From assembly GCF_023036475.1 (NCBI RefSeq), contig NZ_JAJQKI010000007.1, positions 60,114 through 84,113 on the forward strand: a stretch of DNA of 24,000 nt, in the 5' to 3' direction. Numbering within the stretch: position 1 is the stretch's first letter; the number at the start of each line of letters is the position of its first letter. This document shows, in pieces, positions 2,226 through 19,319 of this stretch. Origin of the DNA: Bacillus pinisoli. Lineage in GTDB: Bacteria; Bacillota; Bacilli; Bacillales; SA4. A model generated the notes under the pieces. It was not told where the DNA came from and did not search any database. It saw only the letters and a program-made list of their open reading frames with translations. Made by a program: the position numbers and the translations under genes.

Positions 2226-2913
2226 TATATTTACTGACCCAGAAAAAATGGACCGGTTATTATCAATTTTATGGAGTTCCTTTCCACCTTTAGTGGAGGG
2301 AGCTCTTTATCATACGGTTCCATTAACACTTATATCATTTATCGTTGGACTAATTTTCGCTGTATTAACGGCACTTGCTAGGATTTCCGGAAACCCGCTA
2401 CTCTCTGCACCAGCTAGAACATATGTATCCATCATTAGGGGAACACCTCTGTTAGTTCAGTTGTTCATCATATTTTATGGTTTACCGACAATTGGAATCA
2501 TCATTGATCCATTTCCTTCTGCGGTTATTGGTTTTTCATTGAACGTGGGTGCGTATGCTTCTGAGATTATTAGAGCGGCAATCTTATCCACTCCTAAAGG
2601 ACAATGGGAGGCTGCATATTCTATTGGTATGAACTATCAACAAGCATTAAGACGAATTATCCTACCACAAGCCTCACGTGTATCTATACCGCCTTTATCT
2701 AATACATTTATTAGCCTTGTTAAAGATACTTCACTCGCGTCTCTTATTCTAGTAACGGAAATGTTTCGGCGAGCACAGGAAATTGCTGCACAAACATATG
2801 AATTTTTATATTTATATACAGAGGCAGCGGTCCTATACTGGATTATATGTTTTGGACTGTCTATTATTCAAGACAGACTTGAAAACAGATTAGATCGATA
2901 TGTTGCAAAATAA
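2212..2913 (+). CDS. tcyB: Amino-acid (cystine) ABC transporter permease (TcyB-like)
   Basis: His/Glu/Gln/Arg/opine-family permease motifs are present: [18 protein letters not shown], and an EAA-loop-like [23 protein letters not shown]. The start is ambiguous among TTG 2203, GTG 2206, ATG 2212 and ATG 2248, and none has a good SD. It overlaps or abuts the end of tcyA, so translation is probably coupled. Confidence 0.8.
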
Positions 2914-2930
2914 GATAAAGGAGTTTCAAG

Positions 2931-3665
2931 ATGATTGAAATTCGAGAATTACATAAGCAGTTTGGAAGCTTAAAGGTATTAAAAGGAATAAACTTAAACA
3001 TTGAAAAAGGAAAGGTCGTTGTCGTCATTGGGCCTTCAGGTTCAGGAAAGACTACATTACTCCGTTGTTTAAATATTTTAGAGACTCCTACTATTGGGAC
3101 AGTGAAAATAGGAGACGTAGCTCTGAATTTTAATCAAAAGGTATCAAAAAGTGAAATTCAATCTTTTCGTAAGTTGACGGGTATGGTGTTTCAAAACTAT
3201 AACTTATTTCCACATTTTACGGCATTGGAGAACGTGATTGAAGGACCAGTAACGGTAAAGAAAATGCGAAAAGATGAAGCGAAACAAAATGCTGAAATGT
3301 TACTAGAAAAGGTTGGATTGAAAGAAAAAATTAATCAGTATCCTTTTCAATTGTCAGGTGGACAACAGCAACGAGTTGGAATAGCTAGAGCTCTGGCTAT
3401 TGGTCCAGAAGTGATGTTGTTTGATGAGCCGACCTCTGCTCTAGATCCAGAACTAGTTGGTGAAGTTCTAAAAGTAATGAAAGATTTAGCAAATGATGGT
3501 ATGACTATGATTGTTGTTACTCATGAAATGAGCTTTGCGAAAGAAGTAGCTGATGAAGTAATATTTATGGATCAAGGTAAAATTATTGAGAGAGGTACAC
3601 CAGCTGATCTTTTTTCAAATCCAAAAGAAGAACGAACTCGACAATTTTTAAACTTATTAAAATAG
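2931..3665 (+). CDS. tcyC: Amino-acid ABC transporter ATP-binding protein (TcyC/GlnQ-like)
   Basis: AAAGGAG lies 7 nt upstream of the ATG. Walker [10 protein letters not shown], signature LSGGQQQR, Walker [12 protein letters not shown] and H-loop VTHEM are all present. Confidence 0.85.
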
Positions 3666-3846: not shown

Positions 3847-5433
3847 ATGCATGTTCCATTAACATTAACCCATTTTCTTGACCGTGCCGTTCAACTTTAT
3901 GGAGAGAAAGTGGGGGTTATTGATGAAACTAGAAGTTTAACCTACTCAGAATTACATAACCGAGTGAATCAGTTATCGCATGGATTGAAAGCGCTTAATA
4001 TACAAAAAGGAGATAAGGTTGCTTACTTGGCTCCTAATATTCTAGAGATGCTTGAGGGCTTTTACGGAGTGTATCAGCTAGGTGCTGTGATGACACCGCT
4101 GAATACAAGACTTCAACCAAAAGACTATTTATTTATTCTAAACCATAGTGAAAGTAGAATTCTGTTCGTAGATGAAGAACTCTTTCCACAAATTGAAATA
4201 ATCGTTGATCAACTAGAAACAATTGAAAATATCATTCTTATTAATGGAAAGAAGACTTATCCAGGTGTTATTCATTATGATCATTGGCTAGCTAAATTTC
4301 CTTCAACTACTTTTCCGCGTGTTGAGTTAGAAGAAACTGACATCGCAAGTTTATTATATACAAGCGGGACAACCGGTAATCCTAAAGGTGTCATGCTCAG
4401 TCATAGAAGTAATTATTTGCATGCATTAAGTGCAATGCATCATTTAAGGGTATCAGATGACGATATTTATTTACATGTTTTACCTATGTTTCATGTAAAC
4501 GGATGGGGAGGTCCATTTTACTATACAGGAAATGGTGCTACTCATGTGATGCTAAGAAAAGTAGATGCAGAATCTATCTTTAGATTAATCGAGCAACACA
4601 AGATTACTGTGTTGCATATGGCCCCAACCGTATTAAATAGCTTAATACAATTTTATCAAGAACATAAAATTCAACTATCACACTCTGTTAGAGTAGTTAT
4701 CGCTGGCTCAGCTCCAGCACAAGCATTTGTTCGAAAAGTGGAAGAAGAAATGGGATGGGAGTTTATCCAGGTGTATGGAATGACTGAAATCTCACCATTA
4801 ATTACAACTTCTGTTATTCGCTCGCATCATATAAATGTATCAAAGGAAGAGCAGTATAAAATGAAGGCGCAAGCAGGGTATGGAATGATTGGATCTGAAG
4901 TAAAGGTTGTTAACGATGACGGGGCTGAGGTTACTCGTAATGGCTGTGAAATAGGAGAAATTATTACCAGAACAAATGGTGTAATGGAAGGATACTGGAA
5001 GAATCCAGAAGCAACGAAAGATACCATCAAAAATGGTTGGCTGTACACAGGAGATATGGCCATTGTAGATGAACGAGGTAATATTCAAATAGTAGACAGA
5101 AAAAAAGACGTTATTATTAGCGGCGGAGAGAATATATCTTCTATTGAGGTAGAGGGCGTATTATATGAGCATCCTGCCGTACTCGAAGTAGCCGTAATTG
5201 CAATTCCTGATGAAAAATGGGGTGAACGACCTCATGCTGTCGTTGTTTTACGTAATGACTGCATGGTTTCTGAAGAGGAACTCTTATCATTTGCTGGTAA
5301 CAATCTGGCTAAGTTTAAGATTCCAGCATCCATTTCATTTCGCTCGGAACTCCCTAAAACGGCTTCTGGTAAAATCCAGAAAGTAGAAATCCGGAAACAA
5401 TTTTGGGATAAACAAGGAAGGTTTGTAAACTAA
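3847..5433 (+). CDS. AMP-dependent acyl-CoA synthetase / fatty-acid-CoA ligase (ANL superfamily)
   Basis: AMP-binding motif I YTSGTTGNPKGV. Other ANL motifs are present: MFHVNGWG, YGMTE, GWLYTGD, and IISGGENISSIEVE with the C-terminal K of SGKIQK. Overall it resembles medium/long-chain FACS of the Thermus ttLC-FACS type. Confidence 0.85.
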   Translation: MHVPLTLTHFLDRAVQLYGEKVGVIDETRSLTYSELHNRVNQLSHGLKALNIQKGDKVAYLAPNILEMLEGFYGVYQLGAVMTPLNTRLQPKDYLFILNHSESRILFVDEELFPQIEIIVDQLETIENIILINGKKTYPGVIHYDHWLAKFPSTTFPRVELEETDIASLLYTSGTTGNPKGVMLSHRSNYLHALSAMHHLRVSDDDIYLHVLPMFHVNGWGGPFYYTGNGATHVMLRKVDAESIFRLIEQHKITVLHMAPTVLNSLIQFYQEHKIQLSHSVRVVIAGSAPAQAFVRKVEEEMGWEFIQVYGMTEISPLITTSVIRSHHINVSKEEQYKMKAQAGYGMIGSEVKVVNDDGAEVTRNGCEIGEIITRTNGVMEGYWKNPEATKDTIKNGWLYTGDMAIVDERGNIQIVDRKKDVIISGGENISSIEVEGVLYEHPAVLEVAVIAIPDEKWGERPHAVVVLRNDCMVSEEELLSFAGNNLAKFKIPASISFRSELPKTASGKIQKVEIRKQFWDKQGRFVN

Positions 5434-5518: not shown

Positions 5519-6196
5519 ATGAACTATGGTTCTTCTGCAATAAATACCATTGCACGAGATGATATCTTTAGCTTTTATGAAACGTATATCACAAATGGGT
5601 TAAAGATGTTGAAAAGTACAAAAGAATTGCTTCTAGTAAAGGGGGTTTGGCAGCGATCCCCATATATACCGGTTCCTAAAGAAGTAGAATTTGTTAAAAA
5701 AGAACGTTTCTTACAAACGTGGTTTGGTGATCAAAGGCCCCTTTCTGGTATTGAAATCGGGAGCTTATTCTATAATGTCGTCACTAATTCTATTGGTGTT
5801 ACTTTAATGAATGGATTCCTTCAAGTTACCGAAAAAGGAGATATTCATGACTTCATTAAGAGAGGAAAAGCAATTGCTGAGAAGCATATTGAAGTATTTA
5901 CCCAATTATTAAAAAAGGACGACTTACTTCCAGCAGCTTCTTGGAATGGAGGAGTAACTGCCTCGAAAGTTTCTCCTTTTTCAGAGAAATTAATACTTTC
6001 CTTGATTAGTTTATTAAATAATCAAGGTATTAGTAATTATGGTGAAGCAATCTCAAATTCGTTCCGGAAAGATCTAGCCTCAGATTTTGCGCGCTTAGCG
6101 GCTGAAGTAGGACAATATGCAGAAGAAGGTTCAAAATTACTCATTCACTATGGCTGGATGGAACAACCGCCTCTTGGTAAAGGGAAGGTCAATTAA
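5519..6196 (+). CDS. DUF3231 family protein, apparently lacking the N-terminal ~100 aa typical of the family
   Basis: RSPYIPVPKEVEFVKKERFLQTWFGDQRPLSGIEIGSLF and the C-terminal GWMEQPP match the central and C-terminal parts of DUF3231 proteins as I remember them (~330 aa). The SD is weak (AAGGGA, very short spacing). The upstream in-frame sequence hits a stop at 5453-5455 and shows no family-like residues. Confidence 0.6.
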   Translation: MNYGSSAINTIARDDIFSFYETYITNGLKMLKSTKELLLVKGVWQRSPYIPVPKEVEFVKKERFLQTWFGDQRPLSGIEIGSLFYNVVTNSIGVTLMNGFLQVTEKGDIHDFIKRGKAIAEKHIEVFTQLLKKDDLLPAASWNGGVTASKVSPFSEKLILSLISLLNNQGISNYGEAISNSFRKDLASDFARLAAEVGQYAEEGSKLLIHYGWMEQPPLGKGKVN

Positions 6197-6231
6197 AAGT
6201 AATTTTCTTATTAAGGAAATTACATTGACTA

Positions 6232-6262
6232 ACGGGTACACTATTGTGCCCGTTTTTTTTTG
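6232..6262 (+). terminator. Rho-independent terminator
   Basis: Stem ACGGGTAC (6232-6239) / GTGCCCGT (6246-6253) with one G-U pair, followed by a 9-T run. Confidence 0.75.
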
Positions 6263-6386
6263 TGGGCTGTATTCATATAGTATATTTAGAGAAGATCCTT
6301 TTGTAAGAGAGCTTACAGAAATCATTTAGTTCTTCTTGTAAACTTAAGAATAATAGTAGACGAAATTGAATGGGAGGAACGAATGA

Positions 6387-7616
6387 ATGAGTAGAATGTT
6401 GCTACTAAGTTTTATTTTTTTCTTAACCGCATGCAGTCAATCAACCATTACTACTGATCAATCACTTACACTTGAACAAAGTTATGAAGAGTCGGAAAAA
6501 CAGGCCCAGAATACAACTGTCAGAATGTTTATGTGGGGTGGCGATGAAGGTATCAATTCTTACATGGATCAATGGGTAAAGCCAAGACTGATGAATAACT
6601 ACGGTATTAATCTAGAAAGAATACCTATGGACACGAATGAAATTTTACAAAAGCTAATGAGCGAAAAGAAAGCAAACAAAGAAGAAGGTACAATTGATGT
6701 CATTTGGATTAACGGAGAAAATTTTAAGAACGCTAAAGAACAAGACTTACTATTTGGACCATTTGTAGAAAAACTCCCTAATTATTCTCAATTTATAGAT
6801 ACGGAAAGTCTCGAAAGTCAATTTGATTTTGGAACAAAGATTGACGGTATGGAAGCTCCTTGGGGAAAGGTTCAATTTGTATTCTTATACGACAGTGCTA
6901 AGATCGAGGATCCACCGAGCAATTTTAGTGAGCTAAAAGAATGGATACAAAAAAATCCCGGTAAATTTACATACCCTGATGCTGGAGACTTTACAGGAAA
7001 CGCATTTTTAAGACACTTACTCTATGAATCCATAGGGGGACCTGAGATTTTATTAGAAGAGGGTTATCAGGAAAGTAAAGTCAGTAATTCGACTGAGTTT
7101 ATGTGGAACTATTTAAATGATATTAAGCCAAATTTGTGGAGGCAAGGTAAAACTTATCCAACAACGCTTTCCGACTTGGATCGGCTTTATAGTCAAGGTG
7201 AAGTGTGGATGACGATGGGCTACAATGAAGCAAGAGCGGAAAGTCAAATAAATGATGGGATTTTTCCAAAATCAACACGCTCATTTGTGCTAGATACTGG
7301 TTCAATTGGTAATACTCATTTTTTAGCGATACCCTTTAACAGTCCTAATAAAGTTGGAGCACTAACCACTATTAATTTTTTACTATCACCAGAAGCTCAG
7401 TTAACAAAATATGAATCAACATATTGGGGAGAAAATTTATCTTTAGACCCTTCAAGGTTATCTAAAGCAGACCAAAGCAAATTAGCTTCTATTAACAGAG
7501 GGAATTCTGTGCTATCGCCGGAAACCCTAAAGAAAAGCCTATTACCTGAAGTGGATGCAAAATATGTAGAATGGATCAAGGAGAATTGGTTAAGTGAAGT
7601 TGTTCAAACAAGATAG
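6387..7616 (+). CDS. ABC transporter substrate-binding lipoprotein, YnjB/COG4134-like (substrate unknown)
   Basis: GGAGG at 6373-6377 lies 9 nt before the ATG. Lipobox LTAC in MSRMLLLSFIFFLTACSQ. Length is ~400 aa, with VRMFMWGGDEGIN and IDVIWINGENFKNAKEQDLL motifs that I associate with the YnjB family. It is the first gene of a coupled 7-gene operon. Confidence 0.7.
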   Translation: MSRMLLLSFIFFLTACSQSTITTDQSLTLEQSYEESEKQAQNTTVRMFMWGGDEGINSYMDQWVKPRLMNNYGINLERIPMDTNEILQKLMSEKKANKEEGTIDVIWINGENFKNAKEQDLLFGPFVEKLPNYSQFIDTESLESQFDFGTKIDGMEAPWGKVQFVFLYDSAKIEDPPSNFSELKEWIQKNPGKFTYPDAGDFTGNAFLRHLLYESIGGPEILLEEGYQESKVSNSTEFMWNYLNDIKPNLWRQGKTYPTTLSDLDRLYSQGEVWMTMGYNEARAESQINDGIFPKSTRSFVLDTGSIGNTHFLAIPFNSPNKVGALTTINFLLSPEAQLTKYESTYWGENLSLDPSRLSKADQSKLASINRGNSVLSPETLKKSLLPEVDAKYVEWIKENWLSEVVQTR

Positions 7617-8460
7617 TTGGATTTGGGCCTTACTCCCGGCAGTAGCATTGACGTTTCTGTTTGTTGGATATGGTGTAGGAATGTCTGTTCTATATAGTAT
7701 CTACGATGATGGTAATTGGACTTTGGAAAATTATCTATTACTTTTTAAAAATAAGAGTTTCCTACATTCATTACCTTATAGTTTGTATATAACGTTCGTA
7801 TCAACAACCATTTCTATCATACTAGGGATTATTATTTCAAAAGTACTCTATCGCGGAATAAGAAAGAATTTCTCAAGGCTTCTTATCTGGATACCGATGC
7901 TGTTTCCTCATTTTGTATGGGGGTACATTCTGTATCTTCTCTTATCTCAATCAGGTTTCATTTCTAGCTTATTATTCGAATTAGGTATGATTGATAAGAT
8001 GGAAGATTTTCCAATCATTTTTAGAGAGCAGACGGGATTAGGTATCATACTAACTTATGTATGGAAGGAAACACCATTTGCGGTATTAATGCTTCTTCCT
8101 ATACTTAGTCAAATTAATCAAGATGAAGTAAATGTGGTGAGGACGTTAGGCGGAAATGAATGGGATGTATTTAAGACAGTAGAATGGCCAAGGATTTTAC
8201 CAGTTGTATTAGAGACATCAATCATTATATTTTCGTTTGTATTATCTGCTGTAGAGGTACCTTTACTTTTAGGAGTCACATACCCCAAAACTTTATCTGT
8301 CTTATCTTATGATTGGTTTTTTGAAGGCGATTGGAGTAACAGAGGTCTCTCTTATGCAACAATGACGATCGTATCGCTATTTATTATTTCTATAATGCTA
8401 TTAGTACAATGGGTGATGCAAAAAAATCGTTATAGAATGATGAAAGGAAATGGAAGCTAG
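7594..8460 (+). CDS. ABC transporter permease (YnjC N-half-like)
   Basis: GTG start with AAGGAGA (7578-7584) 9 nt upstream. It overlaps the SBP gene by 23 nt. It is a multi-TM protein with an EAA-like loop (VVRTLGGNEWDVFKTVEWPRILP). Confidence 0.8.
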   Translation: MKLFKQDSWIWALLPAVALTFLFVGYGVGMSVLYSIYDDGNWTLENYLLLFKNKSFLHSLPYSLYITFVSTTISIILGIIISKVLYRGIRKNFSRLLIWIPMLFPHFVWGYILYLLLSQSGFISSLLFELGMIDKMEDFPIIFREQTGLGIILTYVWKETPFAVLMLLPILSQINQDEVNVVRTLGGNEWDVFKTVEWPRILPVVLETSIIIFSFVLSAVEVPLLLGVTYPKTLSVLSYDWFFEGDWSNRGLSYATMTIVSLFIISIMLLVQWVMQKNRYRMMKGNGS

Positions 8461-9262
8461 CATGTTTAAGAAAATCTTATACAATTGGTTTTTCCTTTTT
8501 TTCATCCTTTTATTTGTAGTTCCGGTCATGTATCTCCTCATAAGAAGTATTACGATTGGGTGGAGATGGGAGAGCTTTGACTTCATTAGCATAAACATAG
8601 ATGGCTGGACGGAGTTATTAGGCAACTACGATATAAACAGGGCCATATTAACATCTGTCACGATCAGTCTAGTCGTTATTCTATTAAATGTAATCATTAG
8701 TTTGCCTGCTGCAAAAGAGTTGGCTTTTAGAGATTTTAAAGGGAAAGCCTTCGTTGATACTATTCTTCAATTACCGATTCTATTTCCGAGCTTAGCCATG
8801 GTTATGGGTATCCATATTACCATGATAAAACTAGGCTTAACCGATCATTGGATAGGTGTTAGTTTAGTTCATCTTATTCCGACGGTCCCTTACTCAATAC
8901 GTATTTTCCGAGCGGCTTTCGAACACTTAGGACCACATCTTGAATTACAGGCAATATCACTTGGGGCGAGTAAAAGAAGAGTATTTTACCATATTTACTT
9001 TCCGCTTTTATTGCCAAGTGTGAGAAGTGTCATTTTTCTTACAACGGTAATTTCCTTAAGCCAATATGCCTTAACAGCAATCATAGGTGGAGGAAATGTT
9101 ATGACACTTGCTATGATTTACTTTCCCTATTTATCAACAGTTAATGAAAATTTGATCGCTAGCTTTTCTCTATTGTTTGGTATCATTCCATTTCTTGTCC
9201 TTCTAGTAATTGAAATTTTAATACAACTGTTGATACCATATCGCAAGTCCCTTTTCTACTAA
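8450..9262 (+). CDS. ABC transporter permease (YnjC C-half-like)
   Basis: It overlaps the upstream permease by 11 nt; an alternative in-frame ATG lies at 8462. It is multi-TM with an EAA-like loop (LQAISLGASKRRVFYHIYFPLLLP). Confidence 0.8.
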   Translation: MEASMFKKILYNWFFLFFILLFVVPVMYLLIRSITIGWRWESFDFISINIDGWTELLGNYDINRAILTSVTISLVVILLNVIISLPAAKELAFRDFKGKAFVDTILQLPILFPSLAMVMGIHITMIKLGLTDHWIGVSLVHLIPTVPYSIRIFRAAFEHLGPHLELQAISLGASKRRVFYHIYFPLLLPSVRSVIFLTTVISLSQYALTAIIGGGNVMTLAMIYFPYLSTVNENLIASFSLLFGIIPFLVLLVIEILIQLLIPYRKSLFY

Positions 9263-9276
9263 TTTATTACTTTTAT

Positions 9277-10278
9277 ATGAAACAGAAGGAGGTGTTCACC
9301 ATTACAGGTAAAGTAATTGAAATACAGTCTTTAAGTAAACAATTTAAGTCAACAGAGCTGTTCAAGGAAGTAAGTTTAGTTATAGAACCTTCAGAAATTA
9401 TAAGTATTGTTGGACCCTCAGGTACAGGTAAGTCGACCTTTTTAAAGTGTATATCAGGTTTAGAATCTGTTACGAAAGGCAAGGTTTTAAGTGGAGGGAC
9501 TGATTTAACAAATGAACCAGCAAATAAGAGGCCATTTGTCATGATGTTTCAACAATCTTTATTATTTCCACATATGACTTTGAAGGAGAACGTTGAGTAT
9601 GGACTGCTTTTTTCAAAAATGCCAACTGAAGAGAGAAACAAAGTAGTAGAAGAATTTTTAAAGAAGGTTGACTTAGATTCTTACGCTGAAGCTTATCCAC
9701 ATGAACTATCTGGTGGTCAAAAACAACGTGCAGCCTTAGCACGCGCACTCATCCTTAAACCTGACCTACTCTTATTAGATGAGCCCTTTAGCAGTTTAGA
9801 TAAAGAGTTACGACAACAGCTAAGAATATGGGTAAAAACAATGATAAAAGAACAAGAAGTCTCAGCTATATTTGTTACTCATGATATGGAGGAAGCTATG
9901 ATCATGGGTGATCGTATCGCAGTGTTTGCAAATGGTGGTATACAGCAGATTGGACATCCAGAGGAGTTGCATTACCATCCTAAAAATAAATATGTAGCAA
10001 AATACTTCTCGGAAGGTGTGCTAATTGACGAAAACCGTTTTGTACATGTCAATAAATTAACTATGCAGGAGAAAAAGGAATTCTATCTTTCATGGAAAGG
10101 TAAGGTTGCAAACTCTTTTTATAAGCATGGACTTACTTATGTGTCGATCTTTATTGAAGAACTAGATCAATCAATAATGATGACTAGTCAAGATAAAATA
10201 GAAAAAAATAGCGAAATTACGATCGGAGTATTAAAAGAAGAAGATTTAATACTCTTTGAAAAGGCGATGAAACAATGA
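9277..10278 (+). CDS. ABC transporter ATP-binding protein with a C-terminal extension (YnjD/PotA-FbpC-like)
   Basis: Walker A GPSGTGKST, Q-loop MMFQQ, signature LSGGQKQR, Walker B LLLLDEPFSSLD and H-loop VTHDM are present. A ~100-aa C-terminal domain resembles TOBE-type regulatory domains. The start is uncertain; see the finding at 9277-9303. Confidence 0.85.
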   Translation: MKQKEVFTITGKVIEIQSLSKQFKSTELFKEVSLVIEPSEIISIVGPSGTGKSTFLKCISGLESVTKGKVLSGGTDLTNEPANKRPFVMMFQQSLLFPHMTLKENVEYGLLFSKMPTEERNKVVEEFLKKVDLDSYAEAYPHELSGGQKQRAALARALILKPDLLLLDEPFSSLDKELRQQLRIWVKTMIKEQEVSAIFVTHDMEEAMIMGDRIAVFANGGIQQIGHPEELHYHPKNKYVAKYFSEGVLIDENRFVHVNKLTMQEKKEFYLSWKGKVANSFYKHGLTYVSIFIEELDQSIMMTSQDKIEKNSEITIGVLKEEDLILFEKAMKQ

Positions 10279-10940
10279 AAAATCCAAAGGGAGCAGTAAA
10301 AATTGGCATAGTGGTGGTTATAGTCATGGTGCTTATCTGGTTTAATCAAAACTATCTTTCAATTGAACCTCAGTCCATTCGTAAGTGGATTTTATCTTTT
10401 GGTATACTTTCTCCTATTATTTATATTTTGTTGTACACAGTAAGACCGATTGTATTGTTTCCCGCTTCGTTATTATCATTATCTGCGGGTCTAGCGTTTG
10501 GTCCTTTGTGGGGCACTGTATATACCATTATTGGAGCCACTGGTGGAGCAGTCCTTGCCTTCTTTATATCTAGGAAGCTTGGCAAAAGTTTTCAGAAGAA
10601 AGAATGGAAAGGTCGAAAAGAAGTGATTGAAAAACAGTTAACACAAAATGGATTTTTATATGTCTTATTACTTAGACTCATTCCACTTTTTAATTTTGAT
10701 ATGATTAGTTATTTGTCAGGTTTATCGAAAGTAAAATTTTCACATTTCGTTATAGCAACCATCATTGGGATTATTCCAGGGACTTTTGCTTACAATTTCC
10801 TAGGTTCAAGCCTACTAGCCTCTTCTTGGTGGGTCATTACTATAGCTATTATCTTGTTTGCAACGGTAACGATTGTCCCTCTTCTAATTAGTTCAACACT
10901 TAGAGAAAAACTTGGTTTTTCCAAGAATGGAGATCAATAA
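10275..10940 (+). CDS. TVP38/TMEM64 (DedA-related, YdjX/YdjZ-like) membrane protein
   Basis: ATGA start/stop overlap with the ATPase gene. The family core VRPIVLFPASLLSLSAGLAFGPLWGTVYTIIGATGGAVLAFFISRKLG is present, with multiple TM segments. Confidence 0.8.
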   Translation: MKNPKGAVKIGIVVVIVMVLIWFNQNYLSIEPQSIRKWILSFGILSPIIYILLYTVRPIVLFPASLLSLSAGLAFGPLWGTVYTIIGATGGAVLAFFISRKLGKSFQKKEWKGRKEVIEKQLTQNGFLYVLLLRLIPLFNFDMISYLSGLSKVKFSHFVIATIIGIIPGTFAYNFLGSSLLASSWWVITIAIILFATVTIVPLLISSTLREKLGFSKNGDQ

Positions 10941-10941
10941 C

Positions 10942-11523
10942 ATGCTTGATACACATGGACGGAGATATGTGCAACCAATCATTGGTCGTGCGGCAAAAAT
11001 CTTATTAAAAATAGGTTTAACACCTAACCAAGTAACTTTTATTTCATTCTTAATCGGTGCTTCCTCAGGCGTATTTTATTATTTCAGTTATCCATGGTTA
11101 GCGGTATTTGTTCTATGGCTATCCGGATTTCTAGATGCAGTCGATGGAACTATGGCAAGGGAGACCGAAACATCTCCTTTTGGCACAGTGATGGATGTTA
11201 CATTTGATCGATTAGTAGAAATTAGTGTCATACTAGGTATCGCCTTTGTTTACCCGGAAATCCAGTGGGCGCTTTTACTGTTAAGTGTTTCAATTATTTT
11301 TTCAATTACTATTTTTTTAACGGTTGGTGCGGTTTCAGAGAGACAAGGTATGAAAAGTTTTTATTATCAAGCGGGATTAGCTGAAAGAACAGAAGGATTT
11401 ATTTTCCTCACTTTAATGATGGTCCTACCTAAATATGTATTAATCATTACATTGTTGTTTTTTGTTATTGAAGTATTTACAGGTTGTCAAAGGTTCTTGG
11501 AGGCTAAGAGAATATTAAGATAG
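10942..11523 (+). CDS. CDP-alcohol phosphatidyltransferase family protein (YnjF-like, ~194 aa)
   Basis: Signature DGTMAR-x7-G-x3-D-x3-D (DAVDGTMARETETSPFGTVMDVTFD). I prefer ATG 10942 (GGAG at 10929-10932, 9-nt spacing) over TTG 10912 or ATG 10927. It starts 1 nt after the TVP38 stop and is a polytopic membrane protein. Confidence 0.8.
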   Translation: MLDTHGRRYVQPIIGRAAKILLKIGLTPNQVTFISFLIGASSGVFYYFSYPWLAVFVLWLSGFLDAVDGTMARETETSPFGTVMDVTFDRLVEISVILGIAFVYPEIQWALLLLSVSIIFSITIFLTVGAVSERQGMKSFYYQAGLAERTEGFIFLTLMMVLPKYVLIITLLFFVIEVFTGCQRFLEAKRILR

Positions 11524-11576
11524 ATTTTAAGGATATTGAGATAAATAAAGGTTCAAACACAAGGGAGAGTTTATTT

Positions 11577-13004
11577 ATGAAGAAGTACGATCTCATTGTC
11601 ATAGGTGGTGGTGCTGGGGGATTAACAGTAGCTGCTGGAGCCGCTTCATTAGGTGCAAAAGTTGCATTAATAGATAAAGAAGAACAATTAGGCGGAGATT
11701 GTTTACACTATGGATGTATTCCATCAAAAGCATTAATTGAAACAGCAAAAATAGTACATGACACTCATAAAGCTACACAACTTGGACTAAAAGTGGAAGG
11801 TTCTGTCAATATGGAGCAAGTTAAACAAAGAACCATGGCCGCGATTCAATTGATACAGAAACATGATAGCGTAGATCGTTTTCAACAACTTGGTATAGAT
11901 GTTTATAGGGGAAAAGGTAGTTTCAAATCTTCTCAAGAAGTAAGAGTTAGCGATGGCCATGTCCTTCATGGAAAGAGAGTGGTGATTTCTACTGGTTCCA
12001 GACCTTTTATACCACCTATTAAAGGATTAAAAGAAGCAGGCTTCATAACAAATGAATCCATTTTTAACTTAGATTATGTACCTAAAAACCTACTAGTTGT
12101 CGGCGGTGGTCCTATCGGTTTAGAGTTGGCACAAGCAATGGCAAGACTTGGTAGTAATGTGACGGTGGTAGAACGTTCTTCTGACATTTTACTCCGTGAA
12201 GACTATGAAATTAGAAAAACAGCTCGTCATTTGCTCTCTAAGGAGATGACCATTCTCACTAATTCTAATGTAGAAAAAGTAGAAGTAATTGAACAGGAAA
12301 AAATAGTGACGGTTCATAGAGAGAAAGAGCATATTGAACTCAAAGTAGATGAAATCCTGGTTGCAGTTGGTAGGGTTCCTAATTCAGATTCACTAGAACT
12401 ACAAAATGCCAACATTAATTCAGACGATCGAGGGTTTATAAAAGTGAACAATTATCTGCAAACTAATATACCTTCGATTTACGCAATTGGAGATGTAGTA
12501 GGAACCATGCCGTTTACTCATGTTGCCGGTATGGAAGGAAAGTTAATTGTCCAAAATGCTGTCTTAGGTTTAAAAAGAAAGGCAAATTATGAATCAATTC
12601 CATGGAATACCTATACAGCACCAGAAATATTCCATTTAGGGTTAACAGAAGAAGAAGCTAAATCCAAGAAGATATCTTATAAAGTCTTTAAAGTCGATTT
12701 AAATGATGTCGATCGGTTTGTATCAGATCATGACATGAGCGGTTTTGTGAAAATATTAACGGATCAAAAAGGTTTTATCATTGGCGCCCATGCAATTGGA
12801 AAGGGTGCTGGAGACTGGATGCAAGAGGTAGTACTAGCTAAACAGTTTAGAAGGAAGTTAAGAGATATATCTCAAGTGATTCATCCATATCCAAATCATG
12901 CAGCAGCTGTACAACGAGCGGCGGATTTATATTGGAGAGAGGCCTTATTTACAGGCTGGATTCCGAAAATCGTTAAAATGTATGTAAAGTGGTTTAGATC
13001 ATAA
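11577..13004 (+). CDS. Class I FAD-dependent pyridine nucleotide-disulfide oxidoreductase (Lpd/MerA-like fold, function unknown)
   Basis: GGGAGAG RBS 7 nt upstream. FAD motif VIGGGAGG, redox-active disulfide GGDCLHYGCIPSK, NAD(P) motif VVGGGPIGLE and the AIGDV motif are present. It lacks an NmerA domain and a C-terminal Cys pair. The C-terminal HPYPNH lacks the Lpd His-Glu spacing. Confidence 0.85.
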   Translation: MKKYDLIVIGGGAGGLTVAAGAASLGAKVALIDKEEQLGGDCLHYGCIPSKALIETAKIVHDTHKATQLGLKVEGSVNMEQVKQRTMAAIQLIQKHDSVDRFQQLGIDVYRGKGSFKSSQEVRVSDGHVLHGKRVVISTGSRPFIPPIKGLKEAGFITNESIFNLDYVPKNLLVVGGGPIGLELAQAMARLGSNVTVVERSSDILLREDYEIRKTARHLLSKEMTILTNSNVEKVEVIEQEKIVTVHREKEHIELKVDEILVAVGRVPNSDSLELQNANINSDDRGFIKVNNYLQTNIPSIYAIGDVVGTMPFTHVAGMEGKLIVQNAVLGLKRKANYESIPWNTYTAPEIFHLGLTEEEAKSKKISYKVFKVDLNDVDRFVSDHDMSGFVKILTDQKGFIIGAHAIGKGAGDWMQEVVLAKQFRRKLRDISQVIHPYPNHAAAVQRAADLYWREALFTGWIPKIVKMYVKWFRS

Positions 13005-13007
13005 CAA

Positions 13008-13034
13008 ATGAGTGAGTACATGATACTCACTCAT
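13008..13034. terminator. Terminator-like hairpin without a clean U-tract, in a convergent spacer
   Basis: 11-bp perfect stem ATGAGTGAGTA / TACTCACTCAT with a 5-nt loop, starting 4 nt after the reductase stop. The flanks are only moderately T-rich on either strand. Confidence 0.4.
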
Positions 13035-13232: not shown

Positions 13233-13913
13233 TTAAAGCTCACTTAATAACTGATTGCTCCGCTCAACATGGATAGAAAGTCGTAAAGTTTTTTTTATGA
13301 TGCCTTCTTTTTTTAGCTGACTCATGATGGCGCTAGTGGTCTCTCTTGAGGAGCCAACCATGTTTGCCACATCTTGATGCGTTAATTTCATTTCAATTGT
13401 TTGCCATTCATTTTTACGTCTACCTGTTTTTTCACTTAGTTTAAGAAGTAAGTAGATAATTCTATATTTCACGTCACCTAGTGCTATTTTTTCACTAAGA
13501 CTGTAAAGATCTTTTAGTCTTGTTGAAAGAATATTAATCAATTTAATAGCTATTTTCGGATTTTTTTCAATGAATGTTTCAAACTCAGCTTTACTAATCA
13601 TGCATAAATACGTTTCTGTCATTGCTTCTGCATACGTATCGTCATCAGTAAGGGCTAAGGATGATGTTTCACCGAATATATTTCCGTCTACTAAAATATC
13701 TAAAGTAAACTGTTTTCCATTTTGATTTGTTTTAAATAATCTTACTTGACCCTTTTTTAACAGAAATAATGCTTCTATTGGTTGTTCAGGAGAGAAAATA
13801 ATTGTTCCTTTTTTGACTGGTTTCATTTCACTCATTTCATCAATTATTTGCAGTTCCTCCATTGGCAATTCATCTAACAAACTAATTTGAGAGAGTAGAA
13901 ATAATTTATCCAT
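13233..13913 (-). CDS. Crp/Fnr family transcriptional regulator
   Basis: N-terminal cNMP-binding-like beta-roll (FSPEQPIEALFLLKKGQVRLF, IFGE) and C-terminal HTH (THQDVANMVGSSRETTSAIMSQLKKEGII). There is no Fnr-type Cys cluster. RBS AGAAGGAA lies 8 nt upstream. Confidence 0.85.
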   Translation of the reverse strand: MDKLFLLSQISLLDELPMEELQIIDEMSEMKPVKKGTIIFSPEQPIEALFLLKKGQVRLFKTNQNGKQFTLDILVDGNIFGETSSLALTDDDTYAEAMTETYLCMISKAEFETFIEKNPKIAIKLINILSTRLKDLYSLSEKIALGDVKYRIIYLLLKLSEKTGRRKNEWQTIEMKLTHQDVANMVGSSRETTSAIMSQLKKEGIIKKTLRLSIHVERSNQLLSEL

Positions 13914-14031
13914 CTAGTTAATTCCTTCTTTCTAATGAAACTAGGTTATTCCTATTATAAAGTATTTTTACAAGATTCGTAGTAAATTAGCTTAGTATTA
14001 AAAGTAGAATCTCTTAGAAGGAGGTAGGAAT

Positions 14032-14265
14032 ATGGAGTATGTGTTATTTACAATGAATGGATGTTTAAAGTGTTTAGAAGCGAAGAAATTGCTAAACGAA
14101 TATCGTTATTCTTATATTGAGAAAAATATTCTTCTAGACGTTGATGCAAGGATAGAGTTATTGAAACATGTAAACGAATTAGTCGCACCTGTTCTACTAA
14201 ATCTAAAGAATAATCAAGTGCTATTATGGCATGAATTAAAAAACCAGAAGACGATATGTGAATAA
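14032..14265 (+). CDS. Glutaredoxin/NrdH-like small thioredoxin-fold protein (CxxC = CLKC)
   Basis: AAGGAGG at 14019-14025. The pattern VLFTMNGCLKCLEAKKLL ... VAPVLL fits beta1-CxxC-alpha1 plus the cis-Pro loop of glutaredoxin-like proteins. It is transcribed divergently from the Crp/Fnr gene. Confidence 0.65.
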   Translation: MEYVLFTMNGCLKCLEAKKLLNEYRYSYIEKNILLDVDARIELLKHVNELVAPVLLNLKNNQVLLWHELKNQKTICE

Positions 14266-14278
14266 TCATCTTCTGGTT
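14236..14278 (-). terminator. Terminator of the minus-strand FAD oxidoreductase gene, embedded in the 3' end of the grx-like CDS
   Basis: 14-bp stem AACCAGAAGACGAT (14242-14255) / ATCATCTTCTGGTT (14265-14278) with one mismatch. The A-run at 14238-14243 gives a U-tract on the minus-strand transcript only. Confidence 0.6.
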
Positions 14279-14288
14279 AGGTAAACAC

Positions 14289-15374
14289 TTAACTCTTAAA
14301 TGTTTGGATAAAGTTCTGATCAATTTTATTTTTAAGATACCATGCTAAGCTATGGTGAAAATAGTATTTGTTATACAATAATAATCCCTCTTTTTGACCT
14401 GTTGAAATAATGGACAAATAGTTCTTTTGTGGTTGAAAAGATGTTAAAGGTTCATCGTTTACACAAGCTATGATATTATTCCAAAGAATAGGACTTTGCC
14501 TAACAGCATATACACCGTTTTTAGGGAGACTTTTATAATTCATTAGAGTTACACAGTCACCAGCACCGAATATAAAAGGGTACTGCTCATTTTGTAAATA
14601 CTGGTTTACAAGTAGGAAGTTATCTGAGCTCACTTGTAGGTTAGAATGCTTAAAGAGTAACGGAGCTTTGGGACCCGTTAGCCATAACAAACCATTATGA
14701 CTTATGGCTAAGCCTGATTCCGTTTTGACTTTACTTTCATTAACATAGGAGACACGTTCATGTTCATAAATATGAACTTCTTTTTTTCGTGCTAAATCTT
14801 TTACCACATTCGTGATTTTTTTTGGGTAGTTACTTAACAACTGATTGGAGCAAATTAGTGTTACGTTTGACTGAATTTGATTTCGTCGTTGATAGGCCTT
14901 AATCGAAAGGGCTAATTCTAAAGCGGATGCTCCACCACCTACAATGATTGGTTGTTCCTTTACCCTCAACTTATTTATACTTTCAGGATACATAAACGTT
15001 GGTTTTATTGGATAAATATTATCAATAAAATTAGGGGGATTTTCACCGATGGATCCTATATCAAATGAAACGATGTCAAAATACACTTTTCTTCCAGAAG
15101 AGCATTCAATATATTTAAGATTAGGTTCTATTTTACCTACATATTCTTCAATAAATTCAATAGAAGGGTGAATGGTAAACTTGCGTATATCTATCCTGAT
15201 CTCGTCAATAGAATAGAGACCCTCTGAGTATCCAGAAAACATTCCAGAATAATATTGAAATGGAGAAGGGGATATGACGATAAACTTAATACCATTTAAG
15301 TCTTTTTCTTCTTTGATCTTTTTTAGGCAATATAAATGGGCATGTCCAGCACCAACTAACACAATAGTCTTCAT
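14289..15374 (-). CDS. FAD-dependent pyridine nucleotide-disulfide oxidoreductase of the GxGHAH type (resembles TIGR03169, the 'N-terminal to SelD' family)
   Basis: N-terminal MKTIVLVGAGHAH, followed by YYSGMFSGYSEGLYSIDEIRIDIRKF. A second dinucleotide motif IIVGGGASALELA and a late GAGDC motif are present. RBS AGGAGG is upstream. The family assignment is from memory of family motifs. Confidence 0.75.
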   Translation of the reverse strand: MKTIVLVGAGHAHLYCLKKIKEEKDLNGIKFIVISPSPFQYYSGMFSGYSEGLYSIDEIRIDIRKFTIHPSIEFIEEYVGKIEPNLKYIECSSGRKVYFDIVSFDIGSIGENPPNFIDNIYPIKPTFMYPESINKLRVKEQPIIVGGGASALELALSIKAYQRRNQIQSNVTLICSNQLLSNYPKKITNVVKDLARKKEVHIYEHERVSYVNESKVKTESGLAISHNGLLWLTGPKAPLLFKHSNLQVSSDNFLLVNQYLQNEQYPFIFGAGDCVTLMNYKSLPKNGVYAVRQSPILWNNIIACVNDEPLTSFQPQKNYLSIISTGQKEGLLLYNKYYFHHSLAWYLKNKIDQNFIQTFKS

Positions 15375-15465
15375 ATCATCCTCCTGCCACTACTACGGAC
15401 TTAAAAGAAATAGCCGCCTGATTCTTAAAAAATCAAGAAGTAATCCTCTTTTACTACCTAGAGAG

Positions 15466-15481
15466 TTGTGTTTAAACACAA
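15466..15481. promoter_or_regulatory. Perfect 16-bp palindrome TTGTGTTTAAACACAA (TGTG-N6-CACA core), candidate Crp/Fnr-family operator
   Basis: Seen directly. It lies in the 308-bp divergent region between the FAD oxidoreductase gene (start 15374, minus) and the DsrE-like gene (start 15683, plus). The geometry matches the TGTGA-N6-TCACA class of Crp/Fnr sites. Confidence 0.45.
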
Positions 15482-15682
15482 AATTTTCTTATTCAATCAT
15501 ACTAAGAAACACTAAATGATTTCTGTAACCTATCTTACATAAATTTTAACGTGGAGTATAGATGACTTTTCGATACGAGCTTTGCAAAAGAAGTGTTAAA
15601 AATGTAAGGTAACTTACTGATTGCAGAGTGAAAAAGTAATAGAATTAACAATGAAATTAAAACTAATTAAGGAGTGAGATTT

Positions 15683-16036
15683 GTGAAGAAATTTGCAATC
15701 TTCGTACATGCATCTGAAACTGAAGGAGCTAAAGCATTACATTCGTTATTATATGCACAAGAGCTTCATGAAGCAGGTCATCAAGTAAAAGTTATTTTTG
15801 ATGGAGCGGGAACCGTCTGGGTTAAATTGTTTGAAGACCCGCATCACAAATTTAATCCATTATACAAAGTAGTAAAAAAACTTGGAGTCATTGAAGGCGT
15901 CTGTGAGTTTTGCGCTGGCGCATACGGTGTAAATGAAGAAGTTAAGCAATCCGGACATGTCTCATTGGGTGACATTAATGGACATCCGAGTTTAGTCAAG
16001 TTTATCGAAGAAGGGTATCAAATTATAACATTATAA
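15683..16036 (+). CDS. DsrE/DsrF-like (sulfur-relay fold) small protein
   Basis: I prefer GTG 15683 (AAGGAG at 15669-15674, 8-nt spacing) over the track start at 15674. It is ~117 aa, with FAIFVHASE...KVIFDGAGTVW and a conserved-looking Cys pair VCEFCAGAYG, typical of the small DsrE-like architecture. Confidence 0.65.
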   Translation: MKKFAIFVHASETEGAKALHSLLYAQELHEAGHQVKVIFDGAGTVWVKLFEDPHHKFNPLYKVVKKLGVIEGVCEFCAGAYGVNEEVKQSGHVSLGDINGHPSLVKFIEEGYQIITL

Positions 16037-17933: not shown

Positions 17934-18269
17934 ATGTGGGAACTAATCAATGGAAAGTTAGTACAAAAGAAAGTTTCATCAAGAGTAAAATTTAGAACTA
18001 ATATCAGTGAATTAGTCTTATTAGAAGTAGATAGATTGTCCCTTAAATATGAAATCCCCAAAAATCACATTATTGAAATGGCTTTAAAAACCCTTATTCT
18101 AAATGATGTTATTATTACCAATACAATGGTTAAGCCCAAAGATAGAATTCAGTACAAGACCACTTATGATAAAGAATTACTAGAACAAGTAAGAGATTAT
18201 GCAAAAAAAAATAAAATACACGTAAATCAACTAATTGAATACAGCATGGGTTTAATTATACAAGAATAA
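17934..18269 (+). CDS. Hypothetical DNA-binding protein with two tandem ribbon-helix-helix-like repeats
   Basis: AAAGGAGA RBS 8 nt upstream. Residues 17-55 and 71-109 align without gaps at a fixed offset of 54 (RVKFRTNISELVLLEVDRLSLKYEIPKNHIIEMALKTLI vs RIQYKTTYDKELLEQVRDYAKKNKIHVNQLIEYSMGLII). Each repeat has a strand-helix-turn-helix pattern typical of Arc/MetJ/CopG RHH modules. Confidence 0.55.
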   Translation: MWELINGKLVQKKVSSRVKFRTNISELVLLEVDRLSLKYEIPKNHIIEMALKTLILNDVIITNTMVKPKDRIQYKTTYDKELLEQVRDYAKKNKIHVNQLIEYSMGLIIQE

Positions 18270-18296
18270 CTTTTTGTCTAAATGAAGAGGAGGTAA

Positions 18297-19136
<840 letters not shown>

Positions 19137-19311: not shown

Positions 19312-19319
19312 TACACTAA

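Follow-up and report, generated by a model that had tools for sequence, protein, structure and literature searches.

A conserved importer, CDP-alcohol phosphotransferase, VTT and redox module in Bacillus pinisoli with a possible role in building a phospholipid from an imported compound

In a 24,000-nucleotide stretch of the Bacillus pinisoli genome (contig NZ_JAJQKI010000007.1, positions 60,114 to 84,113; hereafter, the window), seven forward-strand open reading frames (ORFs) between positions 6387 and 13004 form a predicted operon. In order, they encode a lipoprotein substrate-binding protein (SBP), two permeases and the ATPase of an ATP-binding cassette (ABC) importer, a VTT/TVP38 membrane protein, a small cytidine diphosphate (CDP)-alcohol phosphotransferase, and a flavin adenine dinucleotide (FAD)-dependent disulfide reductase. 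Sequence comparisons identify this operon as the Bacillaceae form of a conserved module, the Escherichia coli form of which is ydjXYZ-ynjABCD together with ynjE and ynjF. The module is conserved but uncharacterised; its component families are known, and its logic has precedents. We propose, with a probability of roughly 0.4, that a polar hydroxylated compound, probably one carrying redox-active sulfur or selenium, is imported, reduced and joined to CDP-diacylglycerol, and that the product is then moved across the membrane.

The coordinates of the seven genes follow the ORF listing of the window: SBP, 6387 to 7616 (409 aa); permease 1, 7594 to 8460; permease 2, 8450 to 9262; ATPase, 9277 to 10278 (333 aa); VTT protein, 10275 to 10940; transferase, 10942 to 11523 (193 aa); and reductase, 11577 to 13004 (475 aa), all on the + strand. 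The genes are tightly packed. The SBP stop codon (7616) lies beyond the GTG start of permease 1 (7594), giving a 23-nt overlap, and the two permease genes overlap by 11 nt (stop 8460, ATG 8450). Fourteen nucleotides separate the end of permease 2 (9262) from the ATPase ATG (9277), the ATPase and VTT genes have an ATGA in common (10275 to 10278), and a single nucleotide lies between the VTT stop codon (10940) and the transferase ATG (10942), which is preceded by GGAG. The transferase starts at this ATG and not in the longer ORF that opens with TTG, and its 193-aa product, like the SBP, is 100% identical to an NCBI protein of Bacillus pinisoli. The largest gap, 53 nt between transferase and reductase (11524 to 11576), ends in a GGGAGAG ribosome-binding site; we looked there for significant structure and found none (free energy, -4.8 kcal/mol; z, -0.35).

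The 5' boundary of the transcription unit is an intrinsic terminator at 6231 to 6254 (+ strand; 10-bp stem with 5 G-C pairs, followed by nine T residues), which closes the preceding DUF3231 gene. At the other end, a + strand hairpin at 13008 to 13034 (-14.9 kcal/mol; z, -3.4) starts 4 nt past the last stop codon and has no adjacent U-tract; it is a probable atypical terminator marking the 3' boundary of the operon. Within the operon, only two weak + strand terminator candidates were detected (7919 to 7939 and 12906 to 12922), and the total of 7 terminator-like candidates falls within the shuffle expectation of 4.3 +/- 2.2. The junctions, the boundaries and the gene order conserved in other Bacillaceae agree with one predicted transcription unit. 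An earlier note on this DNA had described the overlapping or abutting junctions at 7594/7616, 8450/8460, 10275-10278 and 10940/10942, had seen no terminator before 13008, and had suggested looking for separate transcripts; every junction reads as it was given, the internal candidates are weak and at shuffle level, and nothing in the sequence points to separate transcripts.

The E. coli K-12 locus (b1750 to b1758, 1833401 to 1841403) carries ydjX, ydjY, ydjZ, ynjA, ynjB, ynjC, ynjD and ynjE on one strand, with ynjF convergent, which is the order that the earlier note had given. Its claim of homology is also borne out by BLASTP, which pairs proteins of the window operon with YnjB, YnjC, YnjD, YdjX/YdjZ and YnjF. 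Its third point, that a thiol-redox enzyme recurs, needs to be qualified: such an enzyme is present at both loci, but the FAD reductase and the AhpD-like YnjA are analogous, not homologous. By BLASTP, nothing at the E. coli locus corresponds to the reductase, and nothing in the window operon corresponds to YdjY, YnjA or YnjE. The two loci are alike in their homologous SBP, permease halves, ATPase, VTT protein and small CDP-alcohol phosphotransferase, and apparently also in control by the Crp/Fnr family, with FNR activation in E. coli and an operator-like site plus an adjacent regulator gene in the window. They differ in that E. coli has a fused permease, two VTT paralogs, YdjY, YnjA, the rhodanese YnjE and a transferase on the opposite strand, whereas the window has split permeases, a single VTT gene, the transferase within the operon and the FAD CxxxxC reductase.

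In the literature searched, what is said of the E. coli genes concerns mainly their regulation. ydjXYZ-ynjABCD is reported to be one operon, directly activated by FNR from a site at -60.5, and ynjE to be FNR activated too (PMC3688515). Overproduction of BaeR mildly induces ynjABCD (PMC2731931), and ynjE/ynjF are listed as a convergent “excludon” pair (PMC12288877). The ydjX-ynjF region belongs to the E. coli core genome: at least 80% of it is present in 5384 of 5426 complete genomes.

A genome scan anchored on the SBP (YnjB/SBP alignment; 80 loci, the ORFs of which were searched with the window and E. coli proteins) yielded loci from Bacillaceae, Paenibacillaceae, Planococcaceae, Exiguobacterium, Clostridia, Halanaerobiales, Spirochaetota, Desulfobacterota, Chloroflexota and Rhodobacterales. 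Bacillaceae loci L002 to L008 keep all seven genes in the order of the window, and arrangements differ elsewhere. Chengkuizengella has reductase-VTT-SBP-permeases-ATPase-transferase; in Planococcus, a divergent transferase gene adjoins a reductase-VTT-SBP-... series; in Tepidibacter, the order is SBP-...-transferase-YdjZ-rhodanese-YdjX; one genome of Spirochaetales carries reductase-ATPase-SBP-permeases-transferase and, nearby, a VTT gene; and Exiguobacterium shows still other arrangements. Among the 57 SBP-anchored loci with full flanks, 27 carry the transferase, 28 carry a VTT gene and 23 carry both (Fisher p = 2e-7, uncorrected for phylogeny).

We also scanned metagenomes from a transferase anchor (YnjF-family alignment, 80 loci) and counted neighbors in the 22 strong loci that have flanks of 5 kb or more on either side. 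A YnjB-type ABC system lies within 6 kb of the transferase in 17 of these 22 loci. Thirteen have a free-standing VTT gene, 3 more have a VTT-reductase fusion, and some redox gene is present in 17. Linkage is strong from both anchors, and the two independent scans recovered the combination of genes that was earlier thought to recur across phyla, in part rearranged or fused, from Bacillales, Clostridia, Spirochaetota, Desulfobacterota and Proteobacteria. Coupling of importer, transferase and VTT protein is frequent but not obligatory.

Gene fusions are among these variants, and metagenome loci L153, L156 and L158 have E. coli-like arrangements. In loci L142, L144 and L151, a ynjB-ynjC(fused)-ynjD-ynjF series stands beside a gene for a VTT-reductase fusion of 720 to 740 aa, and the fusion in Desulfofustis (L040) has the VTT domain at residues 79 to 192, followed by Pyr_redox_2/dim at 246 to 693; a VTT protein is thus fused to an FAD reductase in four loci. 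A further protein, P0256 (591 aa), combines a YnjF-like transferase and a YnjB-like SBP, linked by a signal-peptide-like helix that has a cleavage-like site (AFA|AD). The SBP portion shares 39% identity with the SBP of the window, and the topology is plausible; P0256 is a single protein-cluster representative and may be either a genuine fusion or overlapping genes that were called as one.

The first four genes have the features of a binding-protein-dependent ABC importer: an SBP with a lipobox (L-T-A-C16), two BPD_transp_1 permeases, an ABC_tran ATPase and overlapping genes. The SBP belongs to the YnjB family, scoring 462 bits against a cutoff of 203 on NCBIfam NF008633/PRK11622 (residues 15 to 404) and sharing 35% identity with E. 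coli YnjB over 377 aa (BLASTP E, 1e-72). Permease 1 (BPD_transp_1, 65 bits) matches the N-terminal half of YnjC (residues 37 to 231; E, 1e-12), and permease 2 (43 bits) matches the C-terminal half (residues 356 to 492; E, 2e-9). The ATPase (ABC_tran, 121 bits) is 30% identical to YnjD (E, 2e-31) and is PotA/PhnT/CysA-like, with a C-terminal extension. The permeases are nearest to aminoethylphosphonate, molybdate, sulfate, thiamine and polyamine systems and far below every NCBIfam cutoff, and the ATPase is likewise below every equivalog cutoff.

The AlphaFold2 (AF2) model of the SBP (pLDDT, 89.9) has a cluster-D SBP fold, with PotD, TbpA and PhnS-type proteins as Foldseek neighbors; in the PDB, no sequence match was found at an E value of 1e-3 or lower. 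In an alignment of 78 family members, YnjB among them, 58 columns show conservation of 90% or more. The invariant residues comprise N57, D104, W107, N109, E111, N112, F113, D147, E156, Q163, Y196, D201, F202, T203, F207, W251, N309, N318, Q338, E388 and W401. Since these side chains are identical in every context group and in YnjB, we argue that the ligand is common to the groups or closely related among them. Their character (Asn, Asp, Glu and Gln plus aromatics; Arg/Lys clusters are absent) would suit a polar ligand, hydroxyl-rich or cationic, better than an oxyanion.

Two current labels for the transporter were rejected. As a PotD-type spermidine/putrescine SBP, the protein scores 19 bits on NF007048 (cutoff, 582), and its structural similarity to PotD comes with only 14 to 18% identity. 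As for thiamine (ThiBPQ), no thiamine SBP model matches, the permeases reach 40 to 51 bits on ThiP models with cutoffs of 395 to 970, and TbpA (2qry) is a fold match at only 15% identity. Firmicute thiamine transporters usually carry a thiamine pyrophosphate (TPP) riboswitch. Upstream of the operon, neither the window nor six related loci gave an Rfam match at gathering thresholds; the sole match in the scan of the window and these loci was an unrelated T-box in L027, and no TPP riboswitch was found. The label “putative thiamine transport,” which we take to be the KEGG name for ynjBCD, fails on both scores and riboswitch here. Placement of the SBP and permeases in a characterized thiamine, iron or polyamine family, which would have spoken against the link to YnjBCD, did not occur.

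The transferase belongs to the CDP-alcohol phosphotransferase superfamily (PF01066, 49 bits; cutoff, 22) and, within it, to the YnjF family (30% identity to YnjF over 174 of 193 aa; E, 1e-17). The signature D65xxD68GxxAR73x7G81xxxD85xxxD89 is intact, and D65, D68, G69, A72, R73, G81, D85 and D89 are invariant. The family has motifs of its own, MLDTHxR and KSFYYQxGLAERTEGF, of which the transferase and E. coli YnjF share N-terminal MLD(T/R)H and KSFYY..GL.E.TE; the genes of both also have ynjBCD-type genes as neighbors. It is a small family (39 clusters at 50% identity, E at or below 1e-30). The AF2 model (pLDDT, 84.5) has seven helices, including an N-terminal amphipathic helix, and is nearest to DIPPS/PIPS structures (template modeling [TM] score of about 0.72), with PgsA further away (0.54). 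The best structural match is the IPCT-DIPPS of A. fulgidus (4mnd; TM, 0.72), and DIPPS is also the best PDB sequence match.

Source annotations call this protein an archaetidylinositol-phosphate (AIP) synthase or a phosphatidylglycerophosphate (PGP) synthase. We rejected the AIP synthase reading (NF040950, 107 bits; cutoff, 180) and also that of a phosphatidylinositol-phosphate (PIP) synthase (NF045883, 72 bits; cutoff, 170). In a HMMER alignment to MtPIPS (6h53), Gly152 stands in the place of R155, Leu126 in that of S132 and Gly129 in that of K135. The “ERPER” of the mycobacterial enzyme aligns with “ERTEG” of the transferase; the equivalent of R195 could not be placed, and an invariant R184 is present. 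In MtPIPS, R155 and R195 bind the phosphate of inositol-1-phosphate, and S132 and K135 are also counted among the inositol-phosphate-binding residues (PMC4634129). Neither an inositol-phosphate synthase nor a PIP phosphatase was seen among the genes annotated in the window or among the neighbor families that recur at related loci. The cluster also contains no cytidylyltransferase, which makes CDP-diacylglycerol the most economical candidate donor.

The VTT protein falls in the COG0398 branch of the DedA superfamily (PF09335 VTT_dom, 100 bits; cutoff, 33.9) and is similar to both E. coli paralogs (YdjZ, 32%, E 1e-28; YdjX, 33%, E 2e-22). It does not fit the UptA equivalog (24.6 bits; cutoff, 250). 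COG0398 proteins are regarded as putative phospholipid scramblases (PMC10127716). Three products were checked for cysteine: the VTT protein and permease 1 have none, and the SBP has only that of its lipobox. A DsbD-like thiol relay through these three partners was rejected on this ground, and the single Cys of the transferase is not conserved. Lacking a cysteine pair, the three are improbable as substrates of the reductase, which favors a small molecule or a lipid.

The reductase is a class I pyridine-nucleotide disulfide oxidoreductase (Pyr_redox_2, 216 bits; Pyr_redox, 79 bits; Pyr_redox_dim, 85 bits) with a redox center of C42-LHYG-C47. The surrounding GGDC42LHYGC47IPSK is conserved across the homologs from these neighborhoods, the family motifs being GG[DE]C..GC[VI]PSK and IHPYP, and the C-terminal tail is conserved, basic and amphipathic. 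On NCBIfam models, the protein is below the cutoffs of Lpd, MerA and PRK06370.1-3. Mercuric reductase was rejected (374 bits; cutoff, 454): the C terminus reads ...KMYVKWFRS without a Cys pair, there is no NmerA domain, and the window contains no mer genes (merR/T/P). Dihydrolipoyl dehydrogenase (E3) was rejected as well (390 bits; cutoff, 409), as no E1/E2 genes lie nearby and the dyad region reads IHPYPNH, with His or Tyr at the position that presumably corresponds to the dyad Glu of E3 sequences; the His-Glu dyad is lacking. In Planococcus, the apparent N-terminal fusions of reductase ORFs are an artifact, as the ORFs were called from stop to stop and ran across the divergent transferase gene. 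The Planococcus reductases (L023, L024 and L059) do have a real C-terminal extension of about 90 aa that the Bacillaceae proteins lack; it comprises a hydrophobic segment and another domain.

When all ORFs neighboring the related loci were clustered and annotated with Pfam and NCBIfam, the redox gene was found to vary by lineage. The FAD CxxxxC reductase is carried by Bacillaceae, Paenibacillaceae, Planococcus, Leptospirales and the three metagenome loci with VTT-reductase fusions (L142, L144 and L151). Elsewhere the partner is a GltD-like flavoprotein with an HdrD-like CCG domain (in L036, “diclust_near_Sec,” 567 bits against a cutoff of 530), a rhodanese (L022, L027, L028, L036, L061 and L076) or, in E. 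coli, the AhpD-like YnjA. In several Bacillales, a PrdB/GrdB-like gene lies between the VTT plus MprF-type genes and the YnjB-type transporter; its conserved in-frame TGA, within the motif NPG-U-YIC(HQS), makes its product a predicted selenoprotein (L016, 6770 to 7561; L017, 8970 to 9764; L020, 8960 to 9757). A PrdB/GrdB-like gene with an in-frame TGA is also present in L086, L098 and L099. An SclA-like cysteine desulfurase/selenocysteine lyase neighbors the locus in L061, and a YedE/FdhT-like gene does so in L036. The rhodaneses, the PrdB-like selenoprotein and the diclust_near_Sec, SclA-like, YedE-like and TIGR03169 neighbors in other genomes lend indirect support to a link with sulfur or selenium.

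Other neighbors may concern the attachment of the compound. An APH-family kinase gene lies directly upstream of the transporter in 16 loci, mostly of Desulfobacterota. In Clostridia and Halanaerobacter, the transporter and YdjX/YdjZ are accompanied by TIGR04282 (DUF2064/CofC-like), TIGR04283 (glycosyltransferase family 2 [GT2]), an APH-family kinase and an IU-nucleoside-hydrolase-like gene; NCBI names TIGR04282 and TIGR04283 arsenosugar-biosynthesis glycosyltransferases. Such operons occur in L080 (778 to 10353), L036 (1201 to 17056), L061 and L068, and they also carry a CCG/diclust_near_Sec protein; L068 has in addition a UDP-galactopyranose mutase and a galactofuranosyltransferase. Among the 57 full-flank loci, the transferase never shares a locus with TIGR04282 or TIGR04283, and transferase and APH-family kinase never occur together (0 of 27 loci with the transferase against 8 of 30 without; p = 0.005). 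The pattern fits two alternative ways of activating and attaching one imported alcohol, one Pcs-like and the other Lic/Kennedy-like. The clostridial sets hint at a 5-substituted pentose or riboside as substrate. In five further loci (L041, L043, L044, L056 and L026, at about 9900 to 12300; Halodesulfovibrio and relatives), a YnjB-like SBP gene is directly followed by an IU-nucleoside-hydrolase-like gene, and no YnjC/D-type permease or ATPase was detected near the SBP there.

The observations point to the importer, the CDP-alcohol transferase, the VTT protein and the reductase as a functional unit, which we envisage as follows. The SBP would capture a small polar compound bearing a hydroxyl group outside the cell, and the YnjBCD-type importer would take it in. 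The FAD/NAD(P)H CxxxxC reductase would then reduce a disulfide, selenosulfide or comparable oxidized group on the compound, a step that in other lineages might fall to the HdrD-like CCG flavoprotein, the PrdB-like selenoprotein, the AhpD-like YnjA or a rhodanese. The YnjF-type enzyme would condense the hydroxyl with CDP-diacylglycerol to give CMP and an unusual phospholipid, “phosphatidyl-X,” and the VTT/TVP38 protein, from a lipid scramblase/flippase family and often fused to the reductase, would move this lipid between leaflets. Gene structure, family membership, homology to the E. coli proteins, co-localization and fusions across phyla and the shared operator-like site are observed, whereas we infer every biochemical step, the order of the steps and the lipid nature of the product. 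A lipid product is supported by the VTT protein and by the MprF-type flippase-like domain (PF03706) that adjoins the VTT gene in variants (L016, L017 and L020). There is a real chance that the product represents a new lipid class. It is rather doubtful that the module specifically makes a phosphatidyl-thio-, seleno- or arseno-sugar or a related redox-active lipid from an imported polyol or pentose-like compound containing sulfur, selenium or arsenic, with VTT protein and reductase flipping the lipid and keeping it reduced. The arsenosugar or methylthio-pentose reading was rejected as a conclusion: it comes from the clostridial variants, none of the genes of which are in the window, and we treat it as a lead.

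Several observations weigh against the import-and-condensation proposal. The literature that we searched holds regulation data and the COG0398 survey and assigns no function to ynjF, ynjBCD or ydjX/ydjZ. The SBP finds only cluster-D relatives of 12 to 19% identity in Foldseek, with disparate ligands from which no ligand can be inferred. The redox modules of different lineages are not homologous, and reduction of the imported compound is only one reading of them. The histidine of IHPYP-type motifs is the usual acid-base catalyst of this enzyme class, and it is Tyr (V/IYPYP) in three Bacillaceae homologs (L006, L007 and L008). No ABC system lies close to about one-quarter of the YnjF-like loci, many ABC systems of the YnjB type (in Rhodobacterales, Chloroflexota and most Desulfobacterota) are accompanied by neither transferase nor VTT gene, and the co-occurrence statistic ignores kinship among the loci. 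DIPPS, one of the structures nearest to the transferase model, converts a soluble CDP-alcohol into a phosphodiester that is itself soluble, so the product need not be a lipid.

Among the alternatives, a variant of the same idea is a lipid-anchored redox shuttle, in which a phospholipid with a thiol or selenol head group is flipped outward by the VTT protein as an extracytoplasmic reductant or antioxidant and, on its return, is rereduced with NAD(P)H by the attached or fused FAD reductase, the importer supplying or recovering the head group. The VTT-reductase fusions in four independent loci, the commonest kind for COG0398, speak for it, as do the tail of the reductase, which would suit a membrane surface, the lack of another cysteine-pair target in the VTT, permease 1 and SBP sequences, and the frequency of redox genes around the transferase. 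We nevertheless consider the shuttle unlikely: it is wholly inferential, we know of no thiol lipid of this kind, transferase and ABC genes occur without a reductase in several loci (Exiguobacterium L021, L029 and L042), and the other redox partners include soluble enzymes with no obvious tie to the membrane. A second alternative, without a phospholipid product, is DIPPS-like synthesis of a soluble phosphodiester, in which a soluble CDP-alcohol such as CDP-glycerol and the imported alcohol would yield a compatible-solute-like product or a wall precursor. The 4mnd match and the DIPPS sequence match favor this, and many host genera are halophilic or alkaliphilic Bacillaceae, such as Halobacillus, Salipaludibacillus and Alteribacter. 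Set against it are the absence of the fused or adjacent cytidylyltransferase that DIPPS has, steady partners from lipid-handling families (VTT and the MprF-type domain) and the presence of the module in E. coli, clostridia and spirochetes, and we think it quite unlikely.

The module might instead serve salvage of a cofactor or metabolite with no lipid involved: thiamine, a polyamine (as in the JGI label) or some other compound of the onium or sulfur type, perhaps a disulfide, would be imported and regenerated by the reductase, with transferase and VTT protein acting elsewhere. The APH family includes thiamine, choline and methylthioribose kinases, and the kinase gene upstream of the transporter in 16 loci would suit this idea, as would the PotD, TbpA and PhnS-type neighbors of the SBP and the nearness of permeases and ATPase to aminoethylphosphonate, polyamine, molybdate and sulfate systems. 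The PotD score, the missing thiamine SBP match and the lack of a TPP or other riboswitch in the window and six related loci speak against salvage, which also leaves the linkage and fusion of transferase and SBP unexplained; we find it improbable. Handling of metals or metalloids, that is, uptake and reduction of Se, Te, As or Hg species by a MerA/Lpd-like flavoprotein with a DedA-type protein, as in reported selenite and tellurite phenotypes, would make sense of the 374 bits on the MerA model, the selenium-linked neighbors elsewhere (TIGR03169, diclust_near_Sec, YedE-like, SclA-like desulfurase and PrdB-like selenoprotein) and the arsenosugar-named families of the clostridial variants. Lpd- and GR-type flavoproteins are reported to reduce tellurite (PMC4960239). 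The reductase nevertheless falls short of the MerA cutoff and lacks the Cys pair, the NmerA domain and the accompanying mer genes, the conserved SBP residues are no oxyanion-binding set, and the CDP-alcohol transferase would be left without a role, so that we give metalloid handling little credence. Least of all do we believe in a fortuitous juxtaposition of an ordinary ABC importer with unrelated membrane and redox genes. The other genes are indeed missing from many YnjB-type ABC loci, but linkage from both anchors, in several phyla and in varied orders and orientations, together with gene fusions and the translational coupling of the window genes, makes chance highly improbable.

The proposed import and condensation resembles known systems in logic. 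ChoXWV/Pcs pairs a choline importer with phosphatidylcholine synthase, and LicABCD is a choline-decoration pathway. As with ChoXWV/Pcs, a binding-protein-dependent importer would supply an exogenous alcohol, and an enzyme of the CDP-alcohol family would condense it with CDP-diacylglycerol; as with LicABCD, in which a kinase, a nucleotidyltransferase and a transferase attach the alcohol, variants with APH kinase, TIGR04282 and TIGR04283 might do so by separate steps. Both differ from the module in having another SBP family and neither a dedicated redox enzyme nor a VTT protein, and the likeness proposed here is one of logic. For the transferase, PIP/AIP synthases and DIPPS come out best in NCBIfam, in PDB sequence comparison and in Foldseek, with the same size, a six-helix core and an identical metal-binding signature, whereas the scores are below the cutoffs and the residues with which MtPIPS binds inositol phosphate are not conserved.

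PF07992 and PF02852 are the commonest fusion partners of COG0398 DedA proteins, a pairing left without explanation in the survey that reported it, which tied the subfamily to aerobic metabolism (PMC10127716). The VTT gene of the window belongs to this same subfamily, and the adjacent reductase is the free-standing form of PF07992 plus PF02852; here, by contrast, the pair occurs with an importer-transferase module that is FNR activated in E. coli and common in anaerobes. A more distant likeness is to synthesis of the methylthioxylose donor of mycobacterial lipoarabinomannan (LAM), in that the clostridial and Halanaerobacter gene set could make a lipid-linked 5-substituted pentose. Rv0539 and Rv0540 are presumably equivalent to TIGR04283 and TIGR04282, respectively. 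Neither Rv0539/MtxS nor the arsenosugar-type pairs have any of their genes in the window. Rv0539 makes the lipid donor polyprenyl-phospho-5-methylthioxylose (MTX) (PMC12088412).

If the import-and-condensation proposal is correct, it would give a function to an operon of the E. coli core genome and to related operons in many phyla, constitute a new uptake-dependent pathway for phospholipid head groups in bacteria, and provide a concrete context for the fusions between COG0398 DedA/TVP38 proteins and disulfide reductases, which have long lacked an explanation. Should the lipid derive from an imported sulfur, selenium or arsenic compound, this would also explain why laboratory lipidomes have shown no product for ynjF, ydjX and ydjZ, the precursor being external and the genes switched on by FNR under anoxia. 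Whatever the mechanism, the neighborhood map separates transferase-type, kinase/glycosyltransferase-type and transporter-only forms, and the current labels (archaetidylinositol-phosphate synthase, spermidine/putrescine SBP, mercuric reductase and thiamine transporter) fail by the standards of their own families.

The operon is probably controlled by a neighboring Crp/Fnr-family regulator through a TGTAA-N6-TTACA site. The palindrome TGTAAGAGAGCTTACA at 6302 to 6317, a candidate operator, matches this pattern exactly; the SBP start codon follows 70 nt downstream. The window has one more exact match, at 15524 to 15539, with a one-mismatch copy at 15603 to 15618. The same pattern stands just upstream of the first operon gene, whatever the gene order, in L003, L008, L012, L013, L018 and L019; these loci are from Anoxybacteroides, three other Bacillaceae and both Chengkuizengella, and the first gene differs among them. 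The candidate regulator gene (13233 to 13913, - strand; cNMP_binding plus HTH_Crp_2) is convergent with the operon, and homologs adjoin the operon in L002, L004, L008 and L013. The protein has a single Cys and hence no Fnr-type Fe-S cluster.

Downstream of the operon, 13233 to 16036 forms a small redox set made up of the Crp/Fnr regulator (- strand), a glutaredoxin-like 77-aa protein (+), a TIGR03169-like oxidoreductase (-) and a DsrE-like protein (+). The TIGR03169-like gene (14289 to 15374; 264 bits against a cutoff of 310), of a family described as “N-terminal to SelD,” is a candidate accessory gene, with homologs in 16 of the 80 SBP-anchored loci, including Leptospirales L039. It is divergent from the DsrE/DsrF-like gene (15674 to 16036; PF02635, 35 bits), and the region between them (15375 to 15673) holds the second palindrome; the occurrence of the same palindrome here and at the operon promoter suggests one regulon. 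The DsrE/DsrF-like gene is possibly a member of it on weak evidence, as only one homolog was found in related loci.

On the other side of the operon, an unrelated second ABC importer of the amino-acid type (SBP_bac_3, one permease and an ATPase) occupies 1392 to 3665, followed by an acyl-CoA-synthetase-like gene (3847 to 5433) and the DUF3231 gene (5519 to 6196). The segment from 17934 to 20453 is low in GC (27 to 31%). Its first ORF (17934 to 18269) had no family match in the domain search; the others are a LAGLIDADG_3 homing-endonuclease-like ORF (18303 to 19136) and, on the opposite strand, a gene for a BsuPI-domain protein (19320 to 20453).

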